Virus record (IMG/VR): IMGVR_UViG_2974716774_000001
Coordinates: 1 to 61,736 of that record
Origin: Jacunavirus JC01
Lineage: Duplodnaviria > Heunggongvirae > Uroviricota > Caudoviricetes > Casjensviridae
Strand: one strand, 5' to 3'
Length of the DNA: 61,736 nucleotides
Each line of letters begins with the position of its first letter. The first letter of the stretch is position 1. The notes beneath the pieces were generated by a model. That model made no database searches, was not told the origin of the DNA, and saw only the letters and a list, made by a program, of their open reading frames with translations. The translations under genes and the position numbers were made by a program. Positions 3,183 to 40,806 of the stretch are shown in pieces.

Positions 3183-3460
3183 TCAAGCACCTCGCCTTCA
3201 GCATCAAACCGCATGGCTTCCGGCGCCATTAACCAGGTCGCCTTCACTCCCGAACCGCTGGCCGCCGAGGCGAGCGCGGTGGCAACACGGTATGACATGC
3301 GTCCGGCTTCCTGTGCTTTCAGTGCTGTGTGGTAATTCACATCGGCGAGGCGGGATAGTTGCTGCATTGACCCGTCCCGGTGGGCGTAGGCAGACATAAT
3401 CATGCACAGGTACTTCAGTCGCATGTATTTGTCTTTGCGTGCCCAGTCTGGAAAGCGCAT
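3179..3460 (-). CDS. Hypothetical protein, first gene of leftward operon (possible HTH)
   Basis: 93-aa ORF overlapping primase start by 4 nt; segment SMQQLSRLADVNYHTALKAQ looks helix-turn-helix-like. Confidence 0.45.
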   Translation of the reverse strand: MRFPDWARKDKYMRLKYLCMIMSAYAHRDGSMQQLSRLADVNYHTALKAQEAGRMSYRVATALASAASGSGVKATWLMAPEAMRFDAEGEVLE

Positions 3461-3511
3461 AGTGTGTTCCTCAAAAATAAAACCCCACGCACAGGCGCGC
3501 GAGATTTGCAG

Positions 3512-3541
3512 ATACTAGGCCGCCTGACCGGCTCCCGTCAA
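3512..3541 (-). promoter_or_regulatory. Putative sigma70-type promoter for the leftward primase operon
   Basis: On the minus strand TTGACG, 18-nt spacer, TAGTAT, about 45 nt upstream of the 3460 start. Confidence 0.3.
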
Positions 3542-3627
3542 CGCAAATCTTATGGTACCGCCGTAATAAATTTGCATCCGGAAAGTAAGTTTTGATTTCT
3601 GTCACGTAAAAAATTTTAAAATACCGC

Positions 3628-3656
3628 TTGACGCTGGCCCGCCCCACGAATTACAT
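3628..3656 (+). promoter_or_regulatory. Putative sigma70-type promoter for the rightward replication operon
   Basis: TTGACG (3628-3633), 17-nt spacer, TTACAT (3651-3656), upstream of the 3704 start. Confidence 0.35.
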
Positions 3657-3703
3657 TTAGCTCGTCAAAACGACAAACCTACTAACCAATAACGGAGTGA
3701 GAT

Positions 3704-4081
3704 ATGTCTGGTTCTATTGAGCTGTTGATTGAAGCCCTGAATAACTGCACCGCTGCCCTGCAGGCCCACACCGCTGCAAACGGCAACGCCGCTGGCGCCG
3801 CAGCTGATAAATCTGCTTCTGGTGCTAAGAAAAACAACGCCAAACCGGCTAAACCGGAAACCCCGAAAGCAACGAAAACCAAGCAGGAAACCACTGAAGC
3901 GATCGTTGCGCTGAAAGACACCGTTGGCAAAGACGCTGCGGTCGCTCTTCTGAAGAAACACGGCTTTGCTAAGCTCGCGGACATCGCCGAAGATAAATTC
4001 GACGTGCTGTTCGAAGAAGCTACCGCACAGCTGGAAGCGCATAATGCCGCAGGCGACACTCCTGCTGACGACGACTTCTGA
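3704..4081 (+). CDS. Hypothetical Ala/Lys-rich protein with acidic C-terminal tail
   Basis: 125-aa ORF with RBS GGAG upstream; ends ...TPADDDF, reminiscent of SSB-type acidic tails. Confidence 0.55.
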   Translation: MSGSIELLIEALNNCTAALQAHTAANGNAAGAAADKSASGAKKNNAKPAKPETPKATKTKQETTEAIVALKDTVGKDAAVALLKKHGFAKLADIAEDKFDVLFEEATAQLEAHNAAGDTPADDDF

Positions 4082-4089
4082 TTGACCAG

Positions 4090-4110
4090 GCCCGGGCGAC
4101 CGGGCTTTTT
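4090..4110 (+). terminator. Intrinsic terminator/attenuator
   Basis: Hairpin GCCCGG-GCGA-CCGGGC followed by TTTTT, immediately before the RBS of the next gene. Confidence 0.5.
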
Positions 4111-4120
4111 GGAGTAAACA

Positions 4121-5461
4121 ATGCCCGCCAGATCCTTTCTTCTCCGCCTCATGGATGAATTTGGAAACGGCGGGCATTCTATTTTTGCGCCGTCCGGTTC
4201 GGCGATGTGGCTTTACTGTAGCGGAAGCCTTATCGCGAACCTGCTGGAAGATGACGACGGCTCGTACGAGGCTGCCGAAGGAACGGTGGCGCACGAGCTG
4301 GGAGAGCAGTGGCTGAAGTCTGGCGTTAAGCCCGACCATCGGCTCGGTGAGGTCGTCAGCGTCACGGAAGGCGAAGGCAAGCCGGTTTATGAAGTGCCTA
4401 TCGACGAAGTGATGCTGGACTTCGTTGAAGAGTACGTGCTGTGGTGTGAATGGCTCGAAGGCGACCACTTCGTCGAGCAGCGAGTCTATTTTACCGAGCT
4501 GATGCCGTACGCCAATCAGGATGAGATTGAGGAAGACCCGCTGGCGGTGCCGGTGGATTTCGTACCTCAGGGCGGTACCGCCGACCACGTTTGCTGCATG
4601 ATGGGTCTGATGATTATCACGGACTTCAAATACGGCAAGGGGATCTGGGTCGACGCGGTGGGCAACACCCAGGCGATGCTGTATGCGCTGGGATTCTTTT
4701 ACAAATGGGACTGGAAATACCATTTCGAAAAGATAGTTATCCGCATCGCTCAGCCGCGCCTGCATAACTGGGGCGAGTGGGAAATAACGCGCGACGAGCT
4801 ACTGGATTTTGCCGAGTTCGTCCGCGAGCGCGCTGCGAAGGCGTGGCAGATTAACGCGCCGCGCCGGGTGAGTGCCAAAGGCTGTCAGTGGTGCAAAGCG
4901 AAAGACAGTTGCGTCGCGAACGCCGTGGCGCTGGAAAACCTCGTCTACCGCGATTTTGATTTGCTCGCGGAAGAACTGACGGAGCACCATATGTCGATGA
5001 TGAAAGAGAAGCTGCGCGAAGAGTACAAGATGCACCTCGCCAAAGTGGCCGTGCTGGACGAGGCGGACATGGTGCGCATTCTGGAATTTCGTCGGCCCGT
5101 TGAGCAGTGGTTTAAAGCCATCAACGCAAAACTGGAGGCCGCGGCTAACGCTGGCCACACCATTCCCGGCAAGAAGCTGGTGGATGGAAAATCAAATCGC
5201 GTTTTCCGTAACCAGAAAGCGGCGATTGATCATCTGCTGTTCCTCGGCCTTGAGATGGAGGATATCGTCACCGAAGAGGTTATCTCTCCGGCTCAGGCAG
5301 AGGAAAAGTTAAGGAAGGTGGCAAAGCTGGACAGGAAGAGCATCGACGTTGCGCTTCGCAACTACGTGTTCAAGCCTCCCGGAAAACCCACACTTGTCAA
5401 TGACGACGACCCAAGAGTCGCCCTGGGAGACCACGACGAAGGTGCCTGGGACGATGAGTAA
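4121..5461 (+). CDS. DUF2800-like PD-(D/E)XK nuclease (Cas4/RecB-like fold with C-terminal Cys cluster)
   Basis: 446-aa ORF; N-terminal HSIFAPSGSAMWLYCSGS pattern and C-terminal CQWCKAKDSC cluster; typical partner of DUF2815 and PolA in phage replication modules. Confidence 0.6.
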   Translation: MPARSFLLRLMDEFGNGGHSIFAPSGSAMWLYCSGSLIANLLEDDDGSYEAAEGTVAHELGEQWLKSGVKPDHRLGEVVSVTEGEGKPVYEVPIDEVMLDFVEEYVLWCEWLEGDHFVEQRVYFTELMPYANQDEIEEDPLAVPVDFVPQGGTADHVCCMMGLMIITDFKYGKGIWVDAVGNTQAMLYALGFFYKWDWKYHFEKIVIRIAQPRLHNWGEWEITRDELLDFAEFVRERAAKAWQINAPRRVSAKGCQWCKAKDSCVANAVALENLVYRDFDLLAEELTEHHMSMMKEKLREEYKMHLAKVAVLDEADMVRILEFRRPVEQWFKAINAKLEAAANAGHTIPGKKLVDGKSNRVFRNQKAAIDHLLFLGLEMEDIVTEEVISPAQAEEKLRKVAKLDRKSIDVALRNYVFKPPGKPTLVNDDDPRVALGDHDEGAWDDE

Positions 5462-10073: not shown

Positions 10074-10667
10074 ATGGTGGCGAAAAACAAAAATGCACCG
10101 ATGGCGCTAAGGGCGCGCCGGTCTAACCAGAACGACTCTGAAACCGAGTCGATGATATTCCAGGGCGCGAACATCACGCAGCTCGGGAAACTGTTTCGCA
10201 TGGATCGCCGCGACATCACGCCGAAAATAATGGACGTGGCGCCGTGTGGCGAGCGCGGCGGATACCCCATCTACTACGTCCATGAAGTCGCGCCGCACCT
10301 GGTGAAGCCGATATACGACGTCGAGACCTACCTCAAGCGAATGCACCCGAACGATCTGCCAAAACATCTGACGAAAGAGTTTTGGGGCGGGATGCGCGCC
10401 AAGCAGGAGTACGACAAGGAAGCGGGCAACCTGTGGGAGACGGATAAAGTCATCGCGATAATGAGCGAAGTTTTCAAAGTCCTGCGAATGTCTATCCTGC
10501 TGGCCGGTGACACCGTGGAGCGCGAAATCGCTTTCACCGCTGAACAACGCGAGAAGCTTCGCGTTATTCTCGACGGCGCGCTGCAGGAATGCGCTAACGG
10601 CCTGGTAAACCGCTTCGGCCCTGAGGCTGAGAAAGAGCAGGAGCAGGACGATGACGACGAAATATAA
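10074..10667 (+). CDS. Terminase small subunit (Nu1-like, putative)
   Basis: 197-aa ORF immediately upstream of and overlapping the large terminase; N-terminal region resembles the lambda Nu1 winged-HTH; acidic C-terminus QDDDDEI. Confidence 0.5.
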   Translation: MVAKNKNAPMALRARRSNQNDSETESMIFQGANITQLGKLFRMDRRDITPKIMDVAPCGERGGYPIYYVHEVAPHLVKPIYDVETYLKRMHPNDLPKHLTKEFWGGMRAKQEYDKEAGNLWETDKVIAIMSEVFKVLRMSILLAGDTVEREIAFTAEQREKLRVILDGALQECANGLVNRFGPEAEKEQEQDDDDEI

Positions 10668-12723
10668 AAACCTCGCTGCGATAGTAGCAGACCTGGCGGA
10701 GCAGCTGCGGCCGCCGGAGCGTCTCACCGTTGCCGCTGCCGCCGAGAAATATCGTTTCGTCAACCAGCCGGGTGCCTACATCGGGCCGTGGCTTAATGAG
10801 ACCGCGCCGTACATGGTCGAGCCGATGAACGTCTTCGCCAGCCGCGAGTATAACCGCATGGCGTTCGTCGGCCCGGCGCAGTGCGGCAAAACGGACTCCC
10901 TCATCATTAACGGCGTGGCCTATTCGGTGAAAGTCGACCCGCTGGACACGATGGTTTTCTGCCCCACCAGCAACGCGGCGCGCGACTTCTCGATGCGCCG
11001 TATCGACCGTCTCCACATGCACAGCCCCGAGATCGGGATGATGCTGCGCAAAAGCCGCGACGCCGACAACAAATTCGACAAGCACTATGTAAACGGCATG
11101 ATGCTGACGCTCAGCTTCCCGTCGAAAACGGAGATGGCAGGCCGCCCGGTAGGCCGCATCATCATGACCGACTTCGACCGTATGCCGATGGACGTGGATG
11201 GCGACGGCAACCCGTTTGACCTGGCGTCAAAGCGTACGACGACGTTTAACTCATTCGCCATGTGCTGCGCGGAGTCCTCGCCTTCCCTGCCGCTGACCGA
11301 CCCAAACTGGATAGCCAAAGGCGAGCATGAAGCGCCGCCCTGCGAGGGCATTTTCGCGCTCTACAACCGAGGCGACCGTCGACGCTGGCAGTGGCCATGC
11401 CTGCACTGCTGGACGTGGTTCGAGGGCAAATTCGAACACCTGCAGTGGGATACTCGCGAAGGCCTGTCCAACGCCGAGCGCGGCGAAACCGTACGCATGG
11501 TCTGCCCGCACTGCGGCGTGGAGATCCACCCTGACGAACGTCACGAGATGCAGCAGTGGGGGATGTGGGTGCCGGAAGGATGCCGTGTCAACGAGAAGGG
11601 TCAGCTCACGGGTAAGCGCCCTCGCACGCAGTTCGCGTCTTTCTGGCTGCGCGGCACGGCGGCGGCATTCGCTCAGTGGCGCAGCCTCGTCACCACCTAC
11701 CTCGACGCGCTGGATGAATATGACCGCACGATGTCCGAAGAGGCGCTGAAGAAATTCTGGAACAACGACATGGGCGAAGTCTACCGCCCGAAAAGCCAGG
11801 AGTCTCTGCGCGTACCGGAGGCACTCAAAGCCCGGGCCGAGAAGCTGCCGGAGCAGATGGTACCGAATGGCGTGCGTTTCCTCGTGGCGACCGTCGACGT
11901 CCAGCAGAACCGTTTTGAGGTTATGGTGTCCGGAATAATGCCCGGCCAGCCTTTTGACGTTGTGCCGATTGACCGCTTTAAGATCGCCAAGTCCGAGCGA
12001 CTGGACGTGGACGGCGAGCGCCTGCCCATTAACAGCTCAGCCTACCTTGAGGACTGGCGCCTGCTGGAAGAACGGGTCATCAACGCGTCCTACCCGCTGG
12101 CTGATGGCTCCGGTCGTCGGATGCGCGTCAAGATAACGGGCTGTGACTCCGGCGGTAAAGCCGGTACCACCGACAAGGCGTACGACTTCTGGCGTGAGCA
12201 GCGTGACAAAGGCAACGCTGGCCGATTCATTCTGCTGAAAGGTGAGCCAAACGCTTCGGCGCCGCGTACTCGCGTGGGCTTCCCGGACAGCCAGCGCAAA
12301 GATAATAAATCCGCAGCACGCGGCGATATTCCCGTGTTGTTCATAAACTCTAACATGATGAAGGACAGTCTTAACGGACGACTGGACGTCATGGAGCCCG
12401 GGAAGGGCATGATTCACCTGGCGACGTGGATGCCGGATGCGTTCTTCTCGGAGCTGTGCGCCGAGGTCAGAACGGACAAGGGATGGCAAAACCCGAAAAA
12501 CCTGCGAAACGAAGCGTGGGATTTGCTGTATTATCAGCTCGCTCTCTGCGCTTCGCCCAAGCTGCTGGCTGTCGAGATGATGGACTGGGAGAACCCTGTC
12601 GGCTGGGCGGAAGAGTGGGATAAAAACGACCTCGTATCGCAGCCAGATGAAGGCGAGCGCTTCCAGATGAAGGCGAGCGAGGATAAGATAGATTTCGGCA
12701 AATTCGCCGAGGCGCTTGCGTGA
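10651..12723 (+). CDS. Terminase large subunit (lambda gpA family)
   Basis: 690-aa ORF; Walker A GPAQCGKT; size and organisation as lambda gpA; followed by gpW-like and portal genes. Confidence 0.85.
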   Translation: MTTKYKNLAAIVADLAEQLRPPERLTVAAAAEKYRFVNQPGAYIGPWLNETAPYMVEPMNVFASREYNRMAFVGPAQCGKTDSLIINGVAYSVKVDPLDTMVFCPTSNAARDFSMRRIDRLHMHSPEIGMMLRKSRDADNKFDKHYVNGMMLTLSFPSKTEMAGRPVGRIIMTDFDRMPMDVDGDGNPFDLASKRTTTFNSFAMCCAESSPSLPLTDPNWIAKGEHEAPPCEGIFALYNRGDRRRWQWPCLHCWTWFEGKFEHLQWDTREGLSNAERGETVRMVCPHCGVEIHPDERHEMQQWGMWVPEGCRVNEKGQLTGKRPRTQFASFWLRGTAAAFAQWRSLVTTYLDALDEYDRTMSEEALKKFWNNDMGEVYRPKSQESLRVPEALKARAEKLPEQMVPNGVRFLVATVDVQQNRFEVMVSGIMPGQPFDVVPIDRFKIAKSERLDVDGERLPINSSAYLEDWRLLEERVINASYPLADGSGRRMRVKITGCDSGGKAGTTDKAYDFWREQRDKGNAGRFILLKGEPNASAPRTRVGFPDSQRKDNKSAARGDIPVLFINSNMMKDSLNGRLDVMEPGKGMIHLATWMPDAFFSELCAEVRTDKGWQNPKNLRNEAWDLLYYQLALCASPKLLAVEMMDWENPVGWAEEWDKNDLVSQPDEGERFQMKASEDKIDFGKFAEALA

Positions 12724-12730
12724 GGCAATT

Positions 12731-12985
12731 ATGATCGACACTACAGACCTTAAACTCAAACTGAAAGAGGCGGAGCAGGCCTATCATGACCTCATGACCG
12801 GCGGCTCTGTTCGCGTCTATGTTGACCAGAATGCTGAGCGCATCGAGTACACGGCGGGTAACAAGCAGAACCTGCTGAACTACATCATGCAGCTGCGGGC
12901 AATGATTTGCCGCATTGACCCGACCGACCCGGTATGCTTTATCGGTCTCGGCATCGCGCGCGGCCCGGTAGGAGTCATTTTCTGA
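12731..12985 (+). CDS. Head-tail joining protein, lambda gpW-like
   Basis: Short ORF with AYHDLMTGGSVRV matching the gpW core pattern (AALHDLMTGKRV); RBS GAGG upstream of the ATG at 12731. Confidence 0.6.
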   Translation: MIDTTDLKLKLKEAEQAYHDLMTGGSVRVYVDQNAERIEYTAGNKQNLLNYIMQLRAMICRIDPTDPVCFIGLGIARGPVGVIF

Positions 12986-14637
12986 TGAGCAAGAAAAACA
13001 GCAGCGGAGCCAACCTCGCCGTTATCGATCACCTGAGCGCCATCGCGGCGCCAAAGCAGTCGATGATTGGTGGCGGGCTGGAAGGGGCGAGCCGCACACA
13101 GCGAGAAACGATGAGCTGGAACCCGGCGATAATCTCGCCAGACCAGCAAATCCAGCTGGGCAACAAAGACCTGGCTGATGCCCGTGCGCGCGACATGATT
13201 CAAAACGATGGCTACTCCATCGGCACAATGGCCATTCACCGCGACAGCATCGTCGGCGCGCAGTACCGTCTGAATGCTAAGCCTAACTGGCGGGTGCTGG
13301 GCGTCAACGAAGCGTGGGCGCGCGAGTGGCAGCGAGAGGTAGAGGCGCGGTTTAACCTCGTGGCGGATTCGCCGGAGAACTACTTCGACGCCGCGGGCAT
13401 CAACACGCTGACCGGCATGATTCGTCTGGCCATCAGCAGCGTTTTGATGACCGGAGAGGTCGTGGCTACGGCAGAGTGGCTGCGCCAGGCCAACCGGCCT
13501 TTCAGCACTGCCATCCAGATGATCTCCCCGACCCGCCTGTCTAACCCAGACGGCATGATGGACAACCGCTTCCTGCGCTCCGGCGTTCGTCAGGACATGT
13601 ACGGTCGCCCCATCAGCTACTTCATCAAGAAAACTTTCCCGGGCGCCGAGTATGGCGCGGATGACTGGAAATGGATCGAGGTGCCTGCAACGAAGCCGTG
13701 GGGCCGACGTCAGGTCATCCATATCTACGAGCAGCTGCAGCCAGACCAGTCTCGCGGTGTCAGCGACATGGTGTCGGTGCTCAAGCAAATGCGCATGACC
13801 AAAAACTTCCAGGAGATCGTCCTGCAGAACGCCGTCGTAAACGCGTCGTACGCAGCGGCCATTGAGTCGGAGCTGCCGTCCGAAGTCGTTTTCAGTCAGA
13901 TGGGTCTGGGCCAGAACGGCTTCAAAGAAATGCTTGGCGGCTACATGGGCTCGCTGATGGAGTACATCGCGAGAACCAAAAACATCGCGATAGACGGCGT
14001 TAAGATCCCGCACCTCTTCCCGGGAACGCGCCTGAAGATGCAGCCAATGGGCACCCCTGGCGGCGTGGGCACTGACTATGAAGAGTCACTGCTGCGCAAC
14101 ATCGCCGCTGGCCTCGGGCTTTCGTACGAACAGTTCAGCCGCGACTACACCAAAACCAACTACTCCAGTGCGCGCGCCTCGATGGGCGAGACCTGGAAAT
14201 TCATGAACAGCCGCAAAAAGATGGTGGCTGACCGTTTCGCGAGTCACATCTACTCCCTGTGGCTGGAAGAGGAAATTGCGGCGGGCAATGTTCCGCTGCC
14301 GCCGGGCAAGACGCGCGACTGGTTTTACGCTCCGCTCGTCAAAGACGCGCTGTGCAAAGCCGAGTGGATTGGCGCGAGCCGCGGTCAAATCGACGAGAAG
14401 AAAGAAACCGAAGCTGCTATCCTGCGAATCAAGAACGGGCTGTCGACGTACGAGATTGAAATCGCAAGACTGGGCGGCGACTGGCGAGAAGTGTTTGACC
14501 AGCGCGCCGAAGAAGAGGGTATTATCAGAGAGAAGAAACTTAATTTCTCTGGTCAGCCCGTGCAGGAAGATACTGCGGAAAACGGCAGCGCCGAAGAGAA
14601 GACTACCGCAGAAACCGAGGATGCTACCAATGAGTAA
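12985..14637 (+). CDS. Portal protein (lambda gpB-like)
   Basis: About 550 aa from the ATG overlapping the gpW stop (ATGA); position between gpW and gpC-like genes. Confidence 0.75.
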   Translation: MSKKNSSGANLAVIDHLSAIAAPKQSMIGGGLEGASRTQRETMSWNPAIISPDQQIQLGNKDLADARARDMIQNDGYSIGTMAIHRDSIVGAQYRLNAKPNWRVLGVNEAWAREWQREVEARFNLVADSPENYFDAAGINTLTGMIRLAISSVLMTGEVVATAEWLRQANRPFSTAIQMISPTRLSNPDGMMDNRFLRSGVRQDMYGRPISYFIKKTFPGAEYGADDWKWIEVPATKPWGRRQVIHIYEQLQPDQSRGVSDMVSVLKQMRMTKNFQEIVLQNAVVNASYAAAIESELPSEVVFSQMGLGQNGFKEMLGGYMGSLMEYIARTKNIAIDGVKIPHLFPGTRLKMQPMGTPGGVGTDYEESLLRNIAAGLGLSYEQFSRDYTKTNYSSARASMGETWKFMNSRKKMVADRFASHIYSLWLEEEIAAGNVPLPPGKTRDWFYAPLVKDALCKAEWIGASRGQIDEKKETEAAILRIKNGLSTYEIEIARLGGDWREVFDQRAEEEGIIREKKLNFSGQPVQEDTAENGSAEEKTTAETEDATNE

Positions 14638-15994
14638 AATGGCAACGCAGGCTTTCAAACAGGCGCTGGCCCGTATGCAGCTTCAGCCCATGATGATTGA
14701 GCCGAGCGCAGTTCCGCAAATCGCCGCGTACGCTCAGGCCATGATGGCGGGTGGCGAGCTGCCGGAGGACATGACCGAAGAGCTGCTCAACATGAAGTTT
14801 GACGAGCTGTGCCAGACCTACGGCTACAGCAGCTCAACCCGTGGTAAAAACTTCGCGTTTGCCGACGGCACCGCGATCATTCCGGTGCATGGCTCGCTGA
14901 TTAACCGCTACGGCGGGTATTATTACGGCGACGTCACCGGGTATAACTTCATCCGTCGGCAGCGCGCTGAAGCGATGGCTGACCCGGACGTGGAGCGAAT
15001 TATCTATGACGTTAACAGTAACGGCGGCGAAGCTGCAGGATGCTTTGAACTGTCGGATGAATCGTTTGAAATGCGAGGACAAAAACCGACGCTGGCCGTG
15101 GTCGACTCCAACTGCTATTCGGCGGCGTACGCATTTGCGAGCAGCGCGGATAAAATTTCCGTGACGCCTTCGGGCGGAGCGGGTAGTATCGGCGTCATCT
15201 CGATGCACACGGACATCTCAAAGCTCCTGTCGGATTATGGTGTTAAGATTACACTTATCACCGCCGGGGAGCATAAGGCTGATGGCAACCCGTTTGAGCA
15301 GCTGTCACCGGAAGTGAAGGCGAACATTCAGGCGAGCGTAGACGCAACCCGCGATAAGTTCGTCGCACTGGTGGCGCGAAATCGTGGGATAGACGAGAAG
15401 GCAGTACGTGACACGGAAGCGCGCTGCTTTAACGCCAGTGATGCGCTGGCGCTGAATCTAATTGACGCGGTAGAGACGCCGACACAGGCCATCTCCGCGT
15501 TTATTAACGGGCCATCCGGCTCAACCACTGAGGACGATTCAATGACCAAAGAACAAACCACCAAGCCGGATGGCGCTAATGCGCAGGCACCAGACCCGGC
15601 AAAAATGGAACGCGAACGCATCGCGGGCATTATGAACTGCGAAGCGGCAAAGGGTAAAAGCACTCTCGCTTCTCACCTGGCTTTCAGCACCACGATGAGC
15701 GTGGATGAGGCCAGCGCGATTCTGTCCGCTGCCGCGCCTGAAGCTTCAGCAGCTGCACCGGCAGCGCCAGCTGCACCGGCAGCGCCATCCGCTCCGACTG
15801 CTGCAGCTCCGGGAGCACAGGCAAACGTTCCGGTTGTACCGGCCGCACCGGCTGCACAGACCAACTTCTTCGCTCAGGCCATGAACGCGTCACAGCATCC
15901 GCAAGTCGGCGCGGATGCTCCGGCTGACGGCAAAGGCGAAGAAGTGGACGAGCTGATGGCCAGCTTCACCCTGGCCACTGGCGAAAAGTTTTAA
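14630..15994 (+). CDS. Head maturation protease / scaffold (lambda gpC-like, S49 peptidase family)
   Basis: About 454 aa; ClpP/S49-like core (IIPVHGSLI...YDVNSNGGEA...); Ala/Pro-rich C-terminal region; start overlaps the portal stop. Confidence 0.65.
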   Translation: MSKMATQAFKQALARMQLQPMMIEPSAVPQIAAYAQAMMAGGELPEDMTEELLNMKFDELCQTYGYSSSTRGKNFAFADGTAIIPVHGSLINRYGGYYYGDVTGYNFIRRQRAEAMADPDVERIIYDVNSNGGEAAGCFELSDESFEMRGQKPTLAVVDSNCYSAAYAFASSADKISVTPSGGAGSIGVISMHTDISKLLSDYGVKITLITAGEHKADGNPFEQLSPEVKANIQASVDATRDKFVALVARNRGIDEKAVRDTEARCFNASDALALNLIDAVETPTQAISAFINGPSGSTTEDDSMTKEQTTKPDGANAQAPDPAKMERERIAGIMNCEAAKGKSTLASHLAFSTTMSVDEASAILSAAAPEASAAAPAAPAAPAAPSAPTAAAPGAQANVPVVPAAPAAQTNFFAQAMNASQHPQVGADAPADGKGEEVDELMASFTLATGEKF

Positions 15995-16009: not shown

Positions 16010-16405
16010 ATGCTTATGACTCTGATGGCATCTCTGCCAAACCTGCTCGCAGGTAATTTTGACCTGGGCTCCTGGGAGCCTACCCAGATTCATTCTGGTG
16101 AAGCGGATATCGTGACCGACGGCGAACCTGTCGGCGTGGCGTTCGCGAAATATCAGGTTATCGCTCGTGCTAACGCAGGCGCTAACGCTGGTAAACTCGT
16201 ACCGTGGGATCCGGCGGGCAGTGACGGCGCAGAACTGGCGATCGGCATTGCTAACGAAGCTGGCGTTCCGGGCACTTACGCTCCGTACTACTGCGGTGGG
16301 GTTTTCAACCCTGACGCGATTGTGTGGCCTGCGAGTGTCACCTCCGTTGCGGCCCGCAAAGCAGCATTTGCGCGCACCAACATCCAGATCACCACGCTGT
16401 ACTAA
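16010..16405 (+). CDS. Head decoration protein (lambda gpD-like)
   Basis: 131-aa ORF immediately upstream of the major capsid gene; similar in size and composition to gpD. Confidence 0.55.
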   Translation: MLMTLMASLPNLLAGNFDLGSWEPTQIHSGEADIVTDGEPVGVAFAKYQVIARANAGANAGKLVPWDPAGSDGAELAIGIANEAGVPGTYAPYYCGGVFNPDAIVWPASVTSVAARKAAFARTNIQITTLY

Positions 16406-16416: not shown

Positions 16417-17478
16417 ATGGCTGGACTTTATGATACTTACCGCCTCCTCGCGACGCAGCGTAAGTTTAAACAACTCCCGACGTTCTTCCTGAACTGGTTT
16501 ACCTCTCAGGTTAACTTTCCGGAAGACAAAATTGCCTTCGACAAAGTGTCCACTGACCTGACCCGCATCGCGCCGTTCGTCGCGCCGACTGCGCAGGGTA
16601 AAGTGATCCGCGAAGAAGGCCACACCATGACGGCGTTTAAACCGGCGTACGTTAAGCCGAAACACGTCATCGATCCTAACATGATTATCCCGCGCCAACC
16701 GGGCGAAGCGCTGGCCACCGGCTCGCTGACCATCGATCAGCGTCGTCAGGCGGTCATCGCTTTCCTCCTGCGTAAGCATCGTGCCATGCACGAGAATACC
16801 TGGGAGTGGATGGCGGCGCAGGCGCTGCTGTATGGCTACGTCGACGTCGAAGGTGAGAACTACCCGAAAACCCGCGTGGACTTCGGCCGCGATCCGGCGC
16901 TGACTGGTACGGTTAACTGGGCTGCCGCAGGTTACACCTTCGAGCAGGCGATGGAAGACCTGTACATGATGCGCCGCCTGGCCAACGACAAGTCTGTCAG
17001 CGCAGCTGTGACCGTTGACCACGTTTTCGGTGGCGACGCATGGGCGCAGTTCGCGAAGATCGGCAAGGAAGCGCTGTTCGGCCGCAACGGCCTGATGGAC
17101 ACCACCGTCGGCGGCTCTGAAACGCGCATCACCCGTCTGTGGGATGGCTTCGAAGGTGTCGAATACATGGGCACCATCGCTGGCCTGAACGGCGGCGGTA
17201 AGATTAACGTCTGGGTGAACACGCAGAAATTCCGCGATGAGAAGAACGAGTCGCAGTACCTGATGCCTCAGGATTCTGTGCTCGGCGTTTCTCAGTCAGT
17301 GGACGGCGTTCGCTGCTTCGGCGCGGTACTGGACAAGGCAGCTGGCTATCAGGCTCTCGAATACTTCCCGAAAATGTGGGAGAACGAAGACCCGAGCGTC
17401 GAGTACCTGATGACCCAGGGCGCACCGCTGATGGTTCCGCGTGATCCGAACGCGACCTATCTGCTTAAAGTGCTCTAA
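16417..17478 (+). CDS. Major capsid protein (lambda gpE family)
   Basis: 353 aa from the ATG at 16417 with RBS AAGGAGA; gene order W-B-C-D-E as in lambda. Confidence 0.8.
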   Translation: MAGLYDTYRLLATQRKFKQLPTFFLNWFTSQVNFPEDKIAFDKVSTDLTRIAPFVAPTAQGKVIREEGHTMTAFKPAYVKPKHVIDPNMIIPRQPGEALATGSLTIDQRRQAVIAFLLRKHRAMHENTWEWMAAQALLYGYVDVEGENYPKTRVDFGRDPALTGTVNWAAAGYTFEQAMEDLYMMRRLANDKSVSAAVTVDHVFGGDAWAQFAKIGKEALFGRNGLMDTTVGGSETRITRLWDGFEGVEYMGTIAGLNGGGKINVWVNTQKFRDEKNESQYLMPQDSVLGVSQSVDGVRCFGAVLDKAAGYQALEYFPKMWENEDPSVEYLMTQGAPLMVPRDPNATYLLKVL

Positions 17479-17537: not shown

Positions 17538-17942
17538 ATGCCTCAACGTAAAGTAGTCCAGACTGTAGTCCTGCTCCGCGATGGCGAGCGCATTGTGCCG
17601 CCGGTCGGCAAGCCGTTCAACTTCACCGCGGAAGAGCTGAAGCGTATCGAAGAAGTGAATCCGGACGCAGTGGCGAAGATTGTCGACCCGGGCACCGATG
17701 AAGGTAAACTGGTGACGCTGACCCAAGCTGAGATTGATCAGCAGAAGCAGCAGGCGATCGATGATGCCATTGCTAAATTCAAAAAAGAGCAGGGTATCAA
17801 AGATGATGCTGAAAACACCGATGGCGGCGCTGACAAAAACGCTGCTGGCACCACTGCCAGCAAAACGCAGCAGTCCGGCAAAACGCAGCAGTCCGGCAAA
17901 AACGACAAGTCAGCTGCTGATGCAGCGGGCGATGACATCTAA
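17538..17942 (+). CDS. Hypothetical head-associated protein (position of lambda FI)
   Basis: 134-aa ORF with RBS AGGAGAGAAGG; contains an in-frame 18-bp tandem duplication (KTQQSG KTQQSG). Confidence 0.5.
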   Translation: MPQRKVVQTVVLLRDGERIVPPVGKPFNFTAEELKRIEEVNPDAVAKIVDPGTDEGKLVTLTQAEIDQQKQQAIDDAIAKFKKEQGIKDDAENTDGGADKNAAGTTASKTQQSGKTQQSGKNDKSAADAAGDDI

Positions 17943-20687: not shown

Positions 20688-21143
20688 ATGTCATTAGCAG
20701 ATTTTCAACCTGAAACCCGTACCGTTAAAGTCAAGAACGTCACCTTCGAAGTCCGCGGCCTTTCCTTTGCCGACATCTCCAGCCTTATCCGCACGCACAT
20801 GGATGACCTCGAAGCGGTCTTCACCATGTACGAGCGCGAGGCGCAGGGGCTTAACTTCGGCAACTTGGCGATGGCCAGACTGGCCACTGCTCTCATCTCC
20901 GATGCGCCGGGCCTCGTTGCCCACATCATCGCGCTGGCCGCCGACTCTCCGGAGTTCGTCGACAAAGCCGCACGCCTTCCCGCCTTCACGCAGCTTGATG
21001 CACTGAAGAAAATCGGAGCGATGACCTTCGAAGAGGTCGGCGGTGTAAAAAAGCTGCTGGAGATGATCGTCGAGCTGGTGGAAAACCTTCAGCCAGAAAA
21101 AAGCGAGCAGCCGAAGCGGTCGTCTCCGTCCGGGAAAAAATAA
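20688..21143 (+). CDS. Tail assembly chaperone (gpG-like)
   Basis: 151-aa ORF directly upstream of the tape measure gene with RBS AGGAG; ends at GGG AAA AAA TAA. Confidence 0.6.
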   Translation: MSLADFQPETRTVKVKNVTFEVRGLSFADISSLIRTHMDDLEAVFTMYEREAQGLNFGNLAMARLATALISDAPGLVAHIIALAADSPEFVDKAARLPAFTQLDALKKIGAMTFEEVGGVKKLLEMIVELVENLQPEKSEQPKRSSPSGKK

Positions 21144-21382
21144 TCAACTACTACGATGGAATGCGGGAGCAGGTCAGTCTGCTCCTTTCCGAAGGCCACC
21201 CACACGCCCGGCGCTACCCACTGGCGACGCTGTGGCTGGAAGCACAAATCGTAATGCGCCGTCATAACCAAAGATTTGTCACCGAATCCCTGCTGATGCA
21301 GGGCTGTATCGGAACGATAATGAATGGGAAGAAAGGCTCTAAGCATTATCAGGACATGATAAGGAAACTTAGCGATGGCTAA
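20688..21382 (+). CDS. Tail assembly chaperone frameshift product (gpGT-like, predicted -1 frameshift near 21134-21140)
   Basis: The -1 frame is open from the slippery run GGGAAAAAA through 21382 and ends just inside the tape measure gene. Confidence 0.45.
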
Positions 21383-24300
21383 CAATTCATCCCGTGACGT
21401 CGAGCTTAATATCCGGGCGAGAGACTACAGCCAGAAAACGCTGAAGCAGGTAACAGATGCCATCAGCGACATGGCCAAAGCCCAGGATGCCCAGCGCCTT
21501 GCTGCCGAGCGCGGCGAAGTCACCGCCAAAGAGCTGGAGGCGAGCTACCGCAAGCTGGAGAGCGCCGGTCAGGCGCTGCTTAAGCTCAACTCACTGGTTG
21601 AAGTGTATAAGCGACAGACGGCCGCGCTGGAAGCCCAGCAGGTCAAGCTGGAGCAGACCGTCGAGAAGCAGAAGGAGCTGCAGGCCGCGTATGACGGCGC
21701 CGAGAAAGTAACGAAGCGTCAGGAGGCAGCACTGGCCCGCGCTAACCGCGCCGTGGAGAAAGCCACGCAAGGCCTGAGCGACCAGCAGGCTCGCGTATCC
21801 CGTGCGGCCGCGGAGCTGGACAAATACGGCATCTCCACCAACGAGCTGGCCCGGAGCCAGCAGACCATCGTGGCCAACGTCGGGCGCGTTAACGCGGTGC
21901 TGGAGCGCCAGGACAACATTATCCAGCGCGTGCCTGAGGCAGTGAGGAAATACAATCAGGCGTGGGATGAGGCGATCGCGACAAACAACCGTCTCGATAC
22001 GGCGCGCCTGGAAAAATATAACCGCGCGTGGGATGAGGCGATCGCCATCAACAACCGCATGGACGCCGCCGCCAAGCTGACGCAGCAGCGCCTCGAAGAG
22101 CAGGCTTACGCGATCGATAAGGTTATCACAGGCCTGCGGCGCCAGGCGGATGAGGCCATCGCAGCATCGCGCGGCTACCAGACTCTCGGCCGTGTGGTGG
22201 CAGCGACGAACCTGAGCACCGGCGGCCGTCTGGCCACTGACCTGCAGGCCATCGTTACGCCAGCGCAGGCGGCGCGTTCTACTCTGGGCGGGCTGGAGAA
22301 ACAGGTCGACTCGCTCTCCCGGGAAATTGAGGCGGGTGGGAAAAACATCGAGGGCGCAGCCCAGAAGCTGAAAGACCTGCAGGCCGCGCAGCAGGCGGCA
22401 ATCGGCATGGCCCGTCTTATTGACCAGTTCCGGGCACAGACGACTGCCGTGCGTACCGCGCGTGCGGAGTTTCAGGCAGCACGCGCCGACGTCATGCAGC
22501 TGGCCGAGCGTATGCGTGCCGCACAGGCTGACACCGAGGGTCTGGGTCGTGAGATGCAGGCGGCGCAGCAGCGCCTTAATGCCGCGACGCAGGCACTGCG
22601 CACTACCGGCGCGGCAGCGCGACAGACGCAGGCGGCGCTACGGTCAGCCGGTGTCGACACCCGAACGCTGGGCACTGAATCCGATCGCCTGCGCACTACC
22701 GCACAGCGTACGACGACGGCCGTCGATGGGCTGGCGGGCGCAGTTCGTCGCAGCGGGGAGGCAGCACGCGACGGCGCGAAGGCATTCTCCTTCTTCACGG
22801 ACAGCGGCCGTACCACGCTGTCGGCCACACAGCGCCTCAAAGGTGAGATTCTGGCGCTGACCACGACGTACATTGGCTTCCAGGGCGCTATCAACCTGGC
22901 GGGCGGCGCGGTGGATGCGTTCAAGACCCGGCAGCAGGCGCTCATCAAGATCTCGCAGGTCGTCGGCAAAGACCAGAACCGTCTCAACGCCGAGTGGGAG
23001 TACATGGAGGGTCTGGCCAACCGGCTCGGTGTCAAGATTGAGGACGTGGCCCAGGGATACACCTCATTCGCCGTGGCGGCCAAAGCGACAGGCCTCAGCC
23101 TGCAGCAGACGAAGTACGTGTTCGAGAGCATCACCAAAACCGGCCGCGTGTTCCACCTGTCGGCCGATGACATGCAGGGCGTGTTCCGCGCCATGCAGCA
23201 GATGCTGTCGAAGGGTCAGGTCTATGCGGAAGAGCTTACCGGCCAGCTGGGCGAACGTCTCCCGGCGGCGGTGGCGTTGTTCGCTAAAGGCATGGACATG
23301 ACCACGCAGGAGCTGCTGAAGGCGATGCAGAACGGCGAGATCAGCTCGCAGGCCGTCATCAACTTCGCACGCGCCAACGCCAAAGCTATCGACGCCGAAA
23401 TCGAGACCGCCAGCAAAGGCGTGGATGCGATGGAAGCGCGCGCCCAGAATGCCATGTTTAACTTCAAACTGGCGATGGCGGACTCCGGCTTCATCGAGGC
23501 GTACGTCAGGATGCTGGAGCGCCTGACCGAGTTCCTGAACAGCCCTGACGGTGCAGAGGCCGCGAAGAAATTCGGTGATGCTTTCTCCAAAGCCGCAGAC
23601 GCGATCATCTGGTGCGTTGACAACATCGACATTCTGATTAACGCGCTGACCGTTTTCGCAGGCCTGAAGGCGGTGCAGTATGTCGCGGGTCTCGTGCAGG
23701 GGCTGCGCAAGCTGGCGCCGCTGTTCGCGCAGATCGGCAAAATCGGCGATGGCATCCTGTCGTTCTTCAGCAAATTCGCAGCGCGCCTGGCGACAGGCAC
23801 CGGCGCAGTGAAAGGCCTGGGCATCGCGCTTGGCGGGCTGGTGCGCGCCATACCGTACGTGGGCTGGGCGCTGCTGGCCTATGACATCGGGGCCATCTTC
23901 TATGAGCAGTCGCAGACATTCGCCAAAGCGGTCGACGAGGTTATCCGCGACTTCAAGAACCTCGGCAATCAGCTTATCGCACTGGCGGAGACACCGGTGG
24001 CAGCGCTGCGGGATCTGGCGTATGCCATCGTGCGGCCTATCACCACGCTCTTCTCTACCAGCATCACGGCTATCGCGAACTGGATAGCGGATGTCGTCAG
24101 CCTGATCCCGGGCGTTGGTGAAGACCTGGCCAAGTGGACGCGAGACGTGGCGAAGGAGCTGACCAAGCAAAACCGTGACATGTTCCAGAACGTGTCCGGC
24201 ATCTGGGATGACGTCAATGACAAATGGGCCAAGATGAATGACGACATCACCAAAAAATACAGCCAGACGATGAGCGAGGTCGTTCGTCAGACGCTGGCCG

Positions 24301-25883
24301 CTAAAGCCAAAATGCTGCAGACGGATCTCAGCGCGGCGATGGGCTTCCAGTTCACCGAAGACCCGGGCGGCGGGATCAGCAAGCGTGACCGTGAGGTGCA
24401 GGCGCTGACCAAAGAGTTTGAAAAACTGCAGAAGTCCGCCGACAAAGCGAAGAAGTCGGCCAAAGAAGCACTGATGCGTAAAAACCTGCCGGGCCGCCTG
24501 GCGCTGGTCGACGAAGAGTTCGCACCGCAGCTCGCCAGGGCGAAAGCGCTCGGCGGCGATGAAGGGGCCAAGCTGACCAAACAGCTGCAGGGCATCATCG
24601 CTATCCGTAAGCAGGCCGAGACCGACGAGTACAACGCGTCACAGCGTAGTTCGTCCGGCATCGACAAGCGAGCACGCGCGTTGGAGAACCTGACGCAGAA
24701 ATACAAAGAGCTGAAAGACTCTATCCAGCTCAAAGAGGTGCAGCAGGATCCGACGTCTTCGCTGGCTGACCGCACCGCGGCTGCTGTGCAGAAAGCTAAC
24801 ACCGAGATGGATAAATATATCCGTCAGGCTAATAAGCTCGGTGGCGCGGAAGGCAAAGCACTCTCCGACCAGTTTACTGCCCTGAAGACGGTTAACGAGC
24901 AGTACATCACCCAGAAGATGCAGCTGGAGGAAGTGGAGCGCCTGGAGAACAAGGTCAACAATCTGCTGGCCATCCGTAAGTCGCGGATTGAGGAAATCAA
25001 CGCCAAACGTGAAGCGGGCGTTATCAACGAAGACCAGCAGGTCGCAGGCGTCAATCAGGTCAATCAGGAAACGCAGGGGCCGCTTAATGCCGCTCTGGGC
25101 CAGCTGCAAAGCGCGGGGTCACAGGCGCAAAGCATCATGGGGCCGGAGGCATGGGCGCAGCTCCAGGCGAACATCGCTGCGGCAAAAGCCAGTATGCTTG
25201 ACCTGACAGGTACTTTCACCACGATGGACTCTACCGTCGTTAAAGGTGTTCTCGGCGGCTTTGAAGCGGCGATGGACTCTATCTATGACAGCATGGTACA
25301 GCTCATCCGCGGCACGCAGTCTCTCAGTGACGCGTTTTCGAACCTGGGCGTGGCAGTGGCCAAGTTCTTCGCCGACTTCCTGCGTCAAATCGCAATGGCC
25401 ATCCTTCAGCAGATGGTGCTCAATGCGCTTGCGGGAATGGGAGGCGGTATCGGCGCGGCGGCGCAGGCAGCGGGCGGCGTGGCCAAAGGTGCGGCCAAGC
25501 ACAACGGTGGTATCATCGGCAGCTCGACGACCGGAGGTATGCAGACACGTCAGATGCAGACGTCGTGGTTTGCCAACGCTCCGCGCTTCCACACCGGCGG
25601 GCTGCCCGGCCTGAAGTCAGACGAGGTACCAGCCATTCTGCAGAAAGGCGAGCAGGTGCTGTCCAAAGATGACCCGAACAACATCCTGAACCAGCAGCGG
25701 TCTACGTCAGGCGGTGCTGCGTCGCCGCAGATGAATCGCTTCGTGCTGGTGGACGACCGCACCAAGATCCCCGAGGCCATGAACAGCCAGGAAGGGGAGC
25801 AGGTATTCGTGCAGTTCCTTCAGCGCAACGCCGCGACAGTCCGGCAGATTGCGTCACGTAAAACGAGCGGGAGAAACGGATAA
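21375..25883 (+). CDS. Tail tape measure protein
   Basis: 1502-aa ORF, N-terminal coiled-coil-like Ala/Gln/Arg-rich region, central hydrophobic Gly/Ala-rich region; located after the chaperone pair. Confidence 0.85.
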   Translation: MANNSSRDVELNIRARDYSQKTLKQVTDAISDMAKAQDAQRLAAERGEVTAKELEASYRKLESAGQALLKLNSLVEVYKRQTAALEAQQVKLEQTVEKQKELQAAYDGAEKVTKRQEAALARANRAVEKATQGLSDQQARVSRAAAELDKYGISTNELARSQQTIVANVGRVNAVLERQDNIIQRVPEAVRKYNQAWDEAIATNNRLDTARLEKYNRAWDEAIAINNRMDAAAKLTQQRLEEQAYAIDKVITGLRRQADEAIAASRGYQTLGRVVAATNLSTGGRLATDLQAIVTPAQAARSTLGGLEKQVDSLSREIEAGGKNIEGAAQKLKDLQAAQQAAIGMARLIDQFRAQTTAVRTARAEFQAARADVMQLAERMRAAQADTEGLGREMQAAQQRLNAATQALRTTGAAARQTQAALRSAGVDTRTLGTESDRLRTTAQRTTTAVDGLAGAVRRSGEAARDGAKAFSFFTDSGRTTLSATQRLKGEILALTTTYIGFQGAINLAGGAVDAFKTRQQALIKISQVVGKDQNRLNAEWEYMEGLANRLGVKIEDVAQGYTSFAVAAKATGLSLQQTKYVFESITKTGRVFHLSADDMQGVFRAMQQMLSKGQVYAEELTGQLGERLPAAVALFAKGMDMTTQELLKAMQNGEISSQAVINFARANAKAIDAEIETASKGVDAMEARAQNAMFNFKLAMADSGFIEAYVRMLERLTEFLNSPDGAEAAKKFGDAFSKAADAIIWCVDNIDILINALTVFAGLKAVQYVAGLVQGLRKLAPLFAQIGKIGDGILSFFSKFAARLATGTGAVKGLGIALGGLVRAIPYVGWALLAYDIGAIFYEQSQTFAKAVDEVIRDFKNLGNQLIALAETPVAALRDLAYAIVRPITTLFSTSITAIANWIADVVSLIPGVGEDLAKWTRDVAKELTKQNRDMFQNVSGIWDDVNDKWAKMNDDITKKYSQTMSEVVRQTLAAKAKMLQTDLSAAMGFQFTEDPGGGISKRDREVQALTKEFEKLQKSADKAKKSAKEALMRKNLPGRLALVDEEFAPQLARAKALGGDEGAKLTKQLQGIIAIRKQAETDEYNASQRSSSGIDKRARALENLTQKYKELKDSIQLKEVQQDPTSSLADRTAAAVQKANTEMDKYIRQANKLGGAEGKALSDQFTALKTVNEQYITQKMQLEEVERLENKVNNLLAIRKSRIEEINAKREAGVINEDQQVAGVNQVNQETQGPLNAALGQLQSAGSQAQSIMGPEAWAQLQANIAAAKASMLDLTGTFTTMDSTVVKGVLGGFEAAMDSIYDSMVQLIRGTQSLSDAFSNLGVAVAKFFADFLRQIAMAILQQMVLNALAGMGGGIGAAAQAAGGVAKGAAKHNGGIIGSSTTGGMQTRQMQTSWFANAPRFHTGGLPGLKSDEVPAILQKGEQVLSKDDPNNILNQQRSTSGGAASPQMNRFVLVDDRTKIPEAMNSQEGEQVFVQFLQRNAATVRQIASRKTSGRNG

Positions 25884-32672: not shown

Positions 32673-33410
32673 ATGCCATTAAAAAATGCCCCGAGTCAGG
32701 GGCTTAACTACGGATGGGTGCGCGGCGAGGACTACTGGGGCGGCCCGGTCAACGACGACCTTATCTTCCTCGATACGCTGCTGCACCCTGTCGTCAGGTC
32801 AATGTCTTTCAGCTCGCCACCAGCCGATGCCGTGCCGGGCGACCGCTTCATCGTGGCGGCCAACCCGACAGGCCCGTGGGTGAACCACGCGGGGGATCTG
32901 GCGGCGCTGGTGGAAGGCACATGGGTTTTCTATAAACCGAAGACCGGCTGGCGTCTGCGCCTGCTCTCCACGAATCAGTTCGTCTGGTACAACGGGGATA
33001 ACTGGCAGGATGAGGTGACAGGGGATGACCCGGTTAACCCCGGGCCGGATCCAACGGTCAAGCCGACAGCGTACGACATCGCGGTGACAGTGAGCGACGC
33101 CATGTACCCGGACGAGGCGCTGGTGCATATGCCTCTGCTCGATGCGATGATGCTCCCGGCCAACATGGCAGACAGCTCGCTCGACATGCTACAGTCGTCT
33201 CAGGTTTACGCGCAGATGCGAGTGCAGAGGAACGGCACCAACGTGGGCACCATTACCGTTGAGGCAGGCTCGTACAATGCCACCTTCGCCACGGCCGGTG
33301 GAAACGCCGTTCCCTTCGCCAAAGGGGATCGCCTGACTATCCGTGGCCCGGCAGTCGCGGTGGACGCATTCAAGAATTTTGGATTCGTCATCCGCCTGAA
33401 ATTCGTGTGA
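32673..33410 (+). CDS. Hypothetical tail-associated protein
   Basis: 245-aa ORF with RBS GGAG directly after the gpJ-like gene. Confidence 0.45.
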   Translation: MPLKNAPSQGLNYGWVRGEDYWGGPVNDDLIFLDTLLHPVVRSMSFSSPPADAVPGDRFIVAANPTGPWVNHAGDLAALVEGTWVFYKPKTGWRLRLLSTNQFVWYNGDNWQDEVTGDDPVNPGPDPTVKPTAYDIAVTVSDAMYPDEALVHMPLLDAMMLPANMADSSLDMLQSSQVYAQMRVQRNGTNVGTITVEAGSYNATFATAGGNAVPFAKGDRLTIRGPAVAVDAFKNFGFVIRLKFV

Positions 33411-33417
33411 GGAAAGC

Positions 33418-34371
33418 ATGGCCACCTTTATCGACGGCTTTGAACAGTTTGACGGCGACCGCACTGCGGCGCTGATGCGCATGGCAGGCTACTCCGTCGG
33501 CGGTGTCACCCTGGCGGCGGGCAGGAAGGGCAACAGCCGCTCGGTCAGCTGCTACCGCGCCACGCTCTCCCGGGCATGGTCGATGGTCGACAATCTCCTG
33601 ACGCTGGGCTTCGCGGTCAAATTCGACCAGCGTGGCCCGCTGCTGTCCGTGGGATCCGGCGCGAACCAGCTGTACCTGTGGGTAGACCCGGAGACCGGGC
33701 TGGTTAACCTCGGCACTGGCCTGGCGGCCGGTACGCCGGGATACATCAACCCGCTGAAAAACCGCTGGTACTACTTCGAGCTGCAGCTGGACAAGTCCAC
33801 CAGCAAAGCGACGCTGTTCGTGAATGGCAAACAGGACATCTCGATACCGCTGCCATCCTTCATCACCGGCAACCTGACCGTGCTGCTCAACCCGTTTCAG
33901 CTCTTCGTGGCGCCGAAGGAGGACTACGGCACGCGGCTCTACGACGACCTGTACCTCAACGACGGCCCGCGGCTCGGCCCGATTCAGGTCACGTCGCGTT
34001 TCGCCACGGCGGATGGCAGCAAGACCGGCTGGAGTTTTGACGGTGCTGCTACGCGCTGGCAGGCGGTGTCGCCGCCGATTAACGAGCTGGACAAGTTTAT
34101 CTACACGGCGATCGACGGGAACGAGAACAGCTTCATCTCCGGCACCTCGCTGCCGGACAATAACCCTATCCGGTACCTGCAGCTGGTAACGCTCTTCAGG
34201 AAGGCCACGTCTGACCCGATGAGCCTCGACTTTAACATCGGCAGCCAGGTGAAACGTGAGTCAAACATCAGCCGCGACTGGACGTTCCGATATACGATGA
34301 TGAGCGCGTCGGGGTATGATGCCGACAGCATTAAGGCCGCCGAGTTCGGCGTCAAACTGATTCTGGGGTAA
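33418..34371 (+). CDS. Paralog 1 of a five-member tandem family (putative lectin-like tail fibre/decoration protein)
   Basis: 317 aa; N-terminal M-x-x-F-I-D-G-F-E; internal RWYYFELQL...LFVNGK; RBS GAGGAAAG. Confidence 0.55.
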   Translation: MATFIDGFEQFDGDRTAALMRMAGYSVGGVTLAAGRKGNSRSVSCYRATLSRAWSMVDNLLTLGFAVKFDQRGPLLSVGSGANQLYLWVDPETGLVNLGTGLAAGTPGYINPLKNRWYYFELQLDKSTSKATLFVNGKQDISIPLPSFITGNLTVLLNPFQLFVAPKEDYGTRLYDDLYLNDGPRLGPIQVTSRFATADGSKTGWSFDGAATRWQAVSPPINELDKFIYTAIDGNENSFISGTSLPDNNPIRYLQLVTLFRKATSDPMSLDFNIGSQVKRESNISRDWTFRYTMMSASGYDADSIKAAEFGVKLILG

Positions 34372-34375
34372 ACAC

Positions 34376-35353: not shown

Positions 35354-35366
35354 CAGGAGAAACACA

Positions 35367-36392: not shown

Positions 36393-36401
36393 GGAGCCAG
36401 C

Positions 36402-37559: not shown

Positions 37560-37568
37560 GGAGCCAGC

Positions 37569-38645: not shown

Positions 38646-38654
38646 GGCGCATAT

Positions 38655-40763: not shown

Positions 40764-40771
40764 TATGACTA

Positions 40772-40791
40772 ACGGGCTTCGGCCCGTTTTT
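40772..40791 (+). terminator. Rho-independent terminator after the tail fibre region
   Basis: Hairpin ACGGGC-TTCG-GCCCGT followed by TTTTT. Confidence 0.6.
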
Positions 40792-40806
40792 ACTGAAGGG
40801 GTATCT

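Follow-up and report, generated by a model that had tools for sequence, protein, structure and literature searches.

Does the head-maturation protease gene of Jacunavirus JC01 encode one protein or two? The gene lies at positions 14630–15994 on the plus strand of the 61,736-nt window that we analyzed (the whole of IMG/VR record IMGVR_UViG_2974716774_000001), where a single open reading frame (ORF) encodes a full-length gpC-like prohead protease-scaffold protein of 454 aa and 47.5 kDa and ends in a TAA stop codon at 15992–15994. Judged by its sequence, it is the lambda-gpC-type head-maturation protease of a chi/BcepNazgul-like (Casjensviridae-like) siphophage. A nested arrangement of this kind, as in genes C and Nu3 of phage lambda, is known, ordinary and rarely annotated, and an initial annotation of this DNA had suggested that a scaffold might be nested within the gene in the same way. 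We find that an internal start at position 15542 is probably used, which would yield a 150-aa Nu3-like scaffold besides the full-length protease; the suggestion gains support from a predicted internal start signal, from the conservation of that signal among relatives and from the alignment with lambda and with Burkholderia phage BcepNazgul.

The search for an internal ribosome-binding site and start in the 3′ third, which the initial annotation had proposed, was positive. A GAGGA-N7-ATG element occupies positions 15530–15544, with the Shine-Dalgarno (SD) motif GAGGA at 15530–15534, a 7-nt spacer and an in-frame ATG at 15542, which corresponds to Met305 of the protease. The nested Nu3-like scaffolding ORF predicted from it runs from Met305 to the shared stop (15542–15994, plus strand) and would encode a protein of 150 aa and 14.9 kDa with an isoelectric point of 4.7. 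The SD pairs with the anti-SD at -5.8 kcal/mol and the surrounding 60 nt fold at -11.3 kcal/mol, both of which fall inside the spread seen at bona fide gene starts in this phage (SD -5.3 to -9.8 kcal/mol; fold -5.6 to -15.0 kcal/mol), while the remaining in-frame Met codons of the 3′ third have a weak or absent SD (-2.0 kcal/mol at Met326, -2.6 kcal/mol at Met335). We found no promoter-like site on the plus strand within the protease gene, so a second product would arise by internal translation initiation on the late mRNA and not from a separate transcript.

We aligned 80 relatives taken from IMG/VR, reduced them to 59 sequences less than 80% identical to one another, and counted as an internal start any in-frame ATG in the linker whose SD duplex reached -5 kcal/mol or lower. 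Both the length and the sequence of this linker, which joins the protease core to the 'AERxRIxGI' domain, are hypervariable, yet one of its alignment columns holds a Met nearly throughout. An in-frame ATG with an SD was found in the linker of 57 of the 59 non-redundant relatives, and one of the two exceptions carries a GTG start behind GGAGG. The same combination occurred in the other two frames of the linker in 9/59 and 0/59 sequences, and control windows of the same length elsewhere in the same genes passed in 605 of 3021 cases (20%). Counted per codon, the share of in-frame ATGs preceded by an SD was 70% in the linker versus 15% elsewhere.

The way in which the signal is conserved bears on what has been selected. 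The five residues before the Met differ almost everywhere, 58 sequences giving 56 distinct pentapeptides. In 55 of 58 relatives an AGGAG/GAGGA/GGAG-type core lies 4–11 nt from the start, with the GG of the motif found in all three codon registers (38/15/2). These patterns indicate that selection at the internal start is acting on nucleotides, with the encoded peptide free to vary. In addition, predicted RNA folding is weaker in the 60 nt at the internal start than in the remainder of each gene (mean z +1.70), the z score being positive in 56 of 58 relatives (Wilcoxon p 5e-11). Conservation of the ATG and SD, a signal at the level of nucleotides and weak RNA structure are together the footprints expected of a used and deeply conserved translation start.

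The alignment with lambda places the start at an equivalent position. Lambda gpC matches the protein over aa 19–402 (BLASTP, E 2e-49, 32% identity), and the alignment runs on through the C-terminal third (aa 305–402), with ERERIAGIMNCEAAKGKSTLASHLAFSTTMSVDEASAILSAA opposite ENSRIMGILNCEEAHGREEQARVLAETPGMTVKTARRILAAA and Met305 ('SMTKEQTT') opposite lambda gpC Met309 ('RMTKETQST'). The helical 'RIxGIxxCEEAxG...ILAAAP' domain is homologous in the two proteins, and both genes occupy the same place between the portal and D/E genes. The lambda system differs in several respects: the protein studied here has a much longer Ala/Pro linker, its conserved 'FxxAM..HPxVGAD' and 'LMAxxTxATG' end aligns poorly with the lambda C-terminus, and the lambda C gene starts with GTG and has much stronger SDs at both starts. 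Lambda Met309 lies behind the strongest internal SD, AGGAGG (-10.8 kcal/mol); on this ground, on later lambda work and on the BcepNazgul annotation we take it to be the probable Nu3 start. The overlap of lambda C and Nu3 was described by Shaw and Murialdo (1980, as cited in PMC8508860), Nu3 is the essential lambda scaffold (PMC10695390), and Nu3-Nu3, Nu3-C, Nu3-B and Nu3-E interactions have been reported (PMC3224144).

Closer relatives share the same layout. The prohead protease ClpP of BcepNazgul (gp61), a member of the Casjensviridae, is 47% identical over its whole length and has the same gene order, and its gp60, 'Nu3 protein', is annotated as nested from the equivalent codon 306 behind the SD GGAGA, giving 129 aa; this Nu3 is an annotation, for which we found no experimental backing in the literature. 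The C-terminal motifs are shared with BcepNazgul, whose linker is short and lacks the Ala/Pro expansion. Closest of all are the chi-like Salmonella phages (Chivirus and Jacunavirus, including PMBT19 and BAU.Micro_SLP-22), which are 56–71% identical over aa 1–360, carry an internal AGGAG/GAGGG-ATG at codon 305, and have a linker that past aa 360 is too diverged for tblastn. In the PMBT19 record the product is called 'protease C / head scaffolding domain Nu3'. Among the 60 records listed for the closest matches, a nested second coding sequence appears only in those of BcepNazgul, and the other annotated records give no more than a protease or hypothetical protein as the product. A word-indexed search with the 150-aa product returned one match, low-complexity Ala/Pro words having likely dominated the selection of candidates. 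In one chi-like record (L044, IMGVR_UViG_2974570458_000001, 3001–4800) the protease ORF stops at codon 304, and the rest, with the scaffold, lies in another frame; the gpD-like gene of that record is frameshifted too, so both frameshifts are most likely sequencing errors and not a natural split of protease and scaffold. Beyond these relatives, nested in-frame initiation also gives a protease and a scaffold with a common C-terminal part in Mu (gene I/Z) and in herpesviruses (UL26/UL26.5). The proteases of Mu, P2 and herpesviruses belong to families other than the S49 protease found here, and Mu I/Z, P2 gpO and UL26/UL26.5 are analogues, not homologues, none having matched in any search made.

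Several observations nevertheless weigh against use of the internal start. At 5 bp and -5.8 kcal/mol the internal SD does not surpass the SD of the full-length start (-5.9 kcal/mol), so sequence alone leaves an excess of scaffold over protease unexplained. Some of the weakness in RNA structure could stem from the A-rich codons that a hydrophilic linker uses. GenBank record J02459 of lambda annotates Nu3 from Met239 (201 aa; 2633–3238) and not from Met309 (2843–3238). We found no expression data in the literature for this phage or for any member of the Casjensviridae, and virion mass spectrometry of PIN1/PIN2 lists only a 'head maturation protease', without peptide positions. Finally, a profile search of 1.84 billion representatives for stand-alone scaffold proteins gave 4471 matches, and about half of the top 150 were proteins of 125–160 aa beginning at the internal Met; the two that we traced sit on contigs of about 1 kb that are cut inside the protease gene, which makes them gene-calling artefacts and not independent evidence. 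Metagenome gene callers often report a 125–160-aa protein from the internal Met when a contig ends inside the protease gene.

A rival reading is that the full-length protein is the sole product, serving as both protease and scaffold in the manner of P2 gpO, where the two functions are fused in a single polypeptide (PMC8508860), and that the internal ATG and SD are idle. The existence of such fusions and the only moderate strength of the internal SD speak for this arrangement, but it leaves unexplained why a correctly spaced SD and ATG persist in 57–58 of 59 diverged lineages, within a hypervariable linker and in varying registers, and why the local RNA structure is relaxed; moreover, the homologous lambda gene gives two products. 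A fusion without a second product is thus, in our estimation, distinctly improbable. The sequence itself establishes the family, the order of the genes, the internal start signal with its conservation and the arrangement of the domains; use of the internal start, the ratio of the two products and the binding partners of their parts are inferred.

The predicted product of the internal start also has the appearance of a scaffold. The C-terminal third of the protein matches the stand-alone scaffold-type families phrog_17040 (E 2e-23), phrog_8399 ('head scaffolding protein') and phrog_8940 ('capsid assembly protein'). An AlphaFold model of the 150-aa product, built on 56 homologues with a mean predicted local distance difference test score (pLDDT) of 76, places 45 residues confidently in helices and 66 at pLDDT 50–70, with long coil segments. 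The three-helix domain at aa 323–367 (15596–15730, plus strand; 'ERERIAGIMNCEAAKGKSTLASHLAFSTTMSVDEASAILSA') is modelled at pLDDT ~95, is conserved in 56 relatives and is homologous to a region of lambda Nu3; it corresponds to nested residues 19–63, with helices at 19–31, 40–49 and 54–63. Further downstream, the motif FxxAMxxxxxPxVGAD (aa 413–429, 15866–15916, plus strand) is predicted to form a short helix at nested residues 109–116, and its Met and Pro (nested residues 114 and 120) are near-invariant across the 56 relatives. An amphipathic helix (aa 438–450, 15941–15979, plus strand; 'VDELMASFTLATG') is modelled close to the C-terminus at nested residues 134–146 (pLDDT ~87), in a region with a conserved 'ILAxxxxATGxK' pattern (the 'LMAxxTxATGxK' end), and by analogy with other scaffolds this helix is a candidate for the capsid-binding end. 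The last 30 residues hold 7 Asp/Glu versus 2 Lys/Arg, which bears out an earlier remark on a short acidic C-terminus. As modelled, a small helical domain of the oligomerization type, disordered arms and a terminal helix would together give the look that scaffolds typically have. Fold searches returned no solved structure resembling the predicted scaffold model, and the matches in BFVD with E <0.1 were only two members of the family itself, a 119-aa 'prohead protease' of Salmonella phage 37 and an S49 peptidase. Some relatives (P0008, P0014 and P0021) carry three tandem copies of a helical module of about 40 aa ('..IMxLxEAKGREELAxxLAxxPGMTxEQAKxLLAAAP'); P0021 has 505 aa and, in its N-terminal protease part, is similar to lambda gpC. 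Such arrays mark the helical domain of the scaffold as a duplication-prone unit.

Might the C-terminal third merely target the protease to the procapsid, with scaffolding left to another protein or to the capsid protein itself? C-terminal tails commonly target phage and herpesvirus proteases, and several small ORFs of unknown function lie 3′ of the capsid gene, for example the one encoding a DUF7443 protein at 17538–17942. Such a division of labor would, however, require a scaffold elsewhere, and the capsid protein is of the full-length gpE type without an N-terminal delta domain, the gpE profile covering it from end to end. The small ORFs near the capsid gene are a gpD homologue and the DUF7443 protein, and the C-terminal third of the protease is the only region of the head module that matches a scaffold family, besides being homologous to lambda Nu3, an essential scaffold. 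The initial annotation had pointed to a separate scaffold gene elsewhere as evidence that would speak against nesting; we looked for one and found none among the Pfam and PHROG matches of the head-module ORFs, and a scan of the tail-region ORFs at 32673–40763 with PHROGs and Pfam uncovered no hidden capsid or scaffold gene either. The paper on the chi-like phage STP11 does list a separate 'capsid scaffolding protein' (PMC9783114). That protein (OP535471, 36223–36561, 112 aa) is mislabelled, since it is encoded beside the endolysin and belongs to the lysis family phrog_7686, 'Rz-like spanin'; its counterpart here is a 123-aa protein with a hydrophobic segment (40765–41136), just 5′ of the endolysin gene (41139–41894). 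Taken with these results, a purely targeting role for the tail is highly improbable. Other labels in the STP11 record are also misplaced, with a 'terminase large subunit' and a 'portal protein' among the tail genes and a 'siderophore-interacting protein' that is the tape measure.

The putative scaffold of this phage also contains an Ala/Pro tract. The initial annotation had described an S49-like core followed by an Ala/Pro-rich C-terminal extension, and the sequence is indeed present as quoted, at aa 368–412 (15731–15865, plus strand), where 22 of the 45 residues are Ala and 10 are Pro, or 71% Ala+Pro (A+P). The richness therefore stands, but the terminal position does not: the tract is an internal, disordered linker with conserved elements on either side. 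In 27 other proteins of the phage A+P reaches at most 42% in any 45-aa window, so genome composition does not account for the tract. AlphaFold assigns it low pLDDT and no secondary structure. Across 56 relatives this linker measures between 7 and 44 aa (median 16), the 44 aa found here being the longest. Nor is its composition conserved: in the closest relative, SLP-22, the linker is rich in Thr, and other relatives have Ala/Pro- or Ala/Lys/Glu-rich runs in the same linker or the upstream one. Part of the tract is a perfect 18-bp tandem duplication, CAGCTGCACCGGCAGCGC (15750–15787, plus strand; 2.1 copies, Tandem Repeats Finder, 100% matches, score 76), which encodes AAPAAP repeats and, being perfect, indicates recent slippage. 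On the simplest reading the tract is a flexible, fast-evolving spacer, a lineage-specific linker expansion lengthened partly by slippage. The view that it is itself a functional module and not a neutral low-complexity linker, for example an extended, rigid spacer whose length matters or a segment exposed at the surface, could draw on its record length, its extreme composition and the similar runs in other relatives, but is very doubtful in light of the wide range of lengths, the unconserved composition (Thr-rich in SLP-22), the 18-bp duplication and the lack of modelled structure.

A broader proposal joins the start and the spacer. The nested Nu3-type start might be ancient and near-universal in the S49 prohead-protease family, recognizable by an SD and ATG in an unstructured, hypervariable linker, and the Ala/Pro linker, with its record 44 residues derived from slippage, might be an evolvable spacer that tunes capsid-binding reach. 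We put this forward tentatively, as on balance unlikely to hold in both its parts; if it were true, linker length would affect procapsid geometry or assembly efficiency.

The part of the gene upstream of the internal start (aa 1–304, 14630–15541, plus strand) is given over to the protease, an S49/SppA-like core. PHROG 53, 'head maturation protease', covers the whole protein (E 7e-122), Pfam Peptidase_S49 (PF01343) matches aa 150–289 (E 3.5e-32, 112 bits against a cut-off of 24.9), and SppA crystal structures (PDB 3rst, 4kwb and 3bez) match aa 83–283 (E 1e-17), bacterial SppA proteases being the only relatives with a solved structure. SppA shares the S49 fold and the nucleophilic Ser with the phage protease and lacks the scaffold tail. 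Ser164 is invariant among the aligned phage sequences. By counting along the printed alignments it falls opposite lambda Ser166 and opposite the SppA nucleophile, the serine of 'AASGGY' in B. subtilis SppA. As for the general-base lysine of the Ser/Lys dyad, in the HMMER alignment the lysine of SppA 'IKSG' falls opposite Thr211, and 5 residues downstream Lys216 ('GEHKADGNP') is invariant in all six phage sequences. The full-length start is itself preceded by GAGGA (14617–14621), the SD-like motif 8 nt 5′ of ATG 14630 whose duplex of -5.9 kcal/mol was compared above, and the ATG overlaps the portal gene by 8 nt, the portal TAA stop lying at 14635–14637. A longer, TTG-initiated ORF from 14276 is merely open frame 5′ of the gene; it is ATG 14630 that has the GAGGA.

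The surroundings of the protease gene follow the lambda order W-B-C-D-E, which is the same in lambda, BcepNazgul, 13AC503A, PMBT19 and SLP-22. A lambda A-type large terminase gene (10651–12723) is followed by a small ORF in the gpW position (12716–12985) and by the portal gene of the lambda gpB family (12985–14637, plus strand; Pfam Phage_portal_2, E 2.5e-85). On the other side of the protease lie the genes for a head decoration protein of the lambda gpD family (16010–16405, plus strand; Pfam HDPD, E 1e-12; PHROG 49) and a major capsid protein of the lambda gpE family (16417–17478, plus strand; Pfam Phage_cap_E, E 8e-48, a match across its full length). Overall, the window resembles a phage of about 60 kb from the chi/BcepNazgul group, and among deposited phages Salmonella phage BAU.Micro_SLP-22 comes closest: half of the protease gene is 80% identical to it in nucleotides, and aa 1–360 are 71% identical in protein.

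Elsewhere in the window, two small ORFs (20688–21143 and 21161–21382) stand just 5′ of the gene for a 1502-aa tape measure (21375–25883), where lambda-type phages carry the G/GT chaperone pair with its programmed frameshift; in SLP-22 the counterpart region holds small coding sequences labelled 'tail length tape measure protein'. In the tail region, an ORF resembling a DUF2793 tail fibre (32673–33410) is followed at 33418–38645 by five adjacent paralogous ORFs of 317, 325, 341, 385 and 358 aa, all matching phrog_2448 (three strongly and two weakly), a family for which chi-like phages have three matching places per genome. The next ORF (38655–40763) encodes a 702-aa protein (phrog_7226), the C-terminal half of which reads as tandem repeats of about 24 aa, each ending in a 'DYPD/YPN'-like sequence, and which could belong to a chi-type tail fibre.

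We therefore return to the two-product reading of the protease gene and to how it would operate. Ribosomes starting at 14630 would make the 454-aa protease, with its S49 serine protease core and scaffold-type tail, while ribosomes starting at the GAGGA-N7-ATG at 15542 would make the 150-aa Nu3-like scaffold, identical to the C-terminal third of the protease. By analogy with lambda, the tail shared by the two products would let scaffold molecules self-associate, would touch the portal and the major capsid protein and so nucleate and fill the procapsid, and would bring a small number of protease molecules inside the shell. Once there, the protease would degrade the scaffold and itself, making DNA packaging possible. 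That a scaffold is needed for procapsid assembly, lies inside the procapsid and is removed by the protease are points that we infer from lambda (PMC3224144, PMC10695390).

There is no new biology here beyond the lambda C/Nu3 paradigm, and the Ala/Pro expansion is a minor, lineage-specific curiosity; the value of the finding is in annotation. Most of the records closest to this gene lack a nested coding sequence, and the scaffold of this large group, the Casjensviridae and many uncultured relatives, is thus usually absent from gene lists; in one study an unrelated lysis protein received the label instead. These predicted scaffolds can be annotated systematically by a signature that runs through the family: some 300 codons into the S49 protease gene, in a hypervariable and weakly folded stretch, an SD precedes an in-frame ATG.

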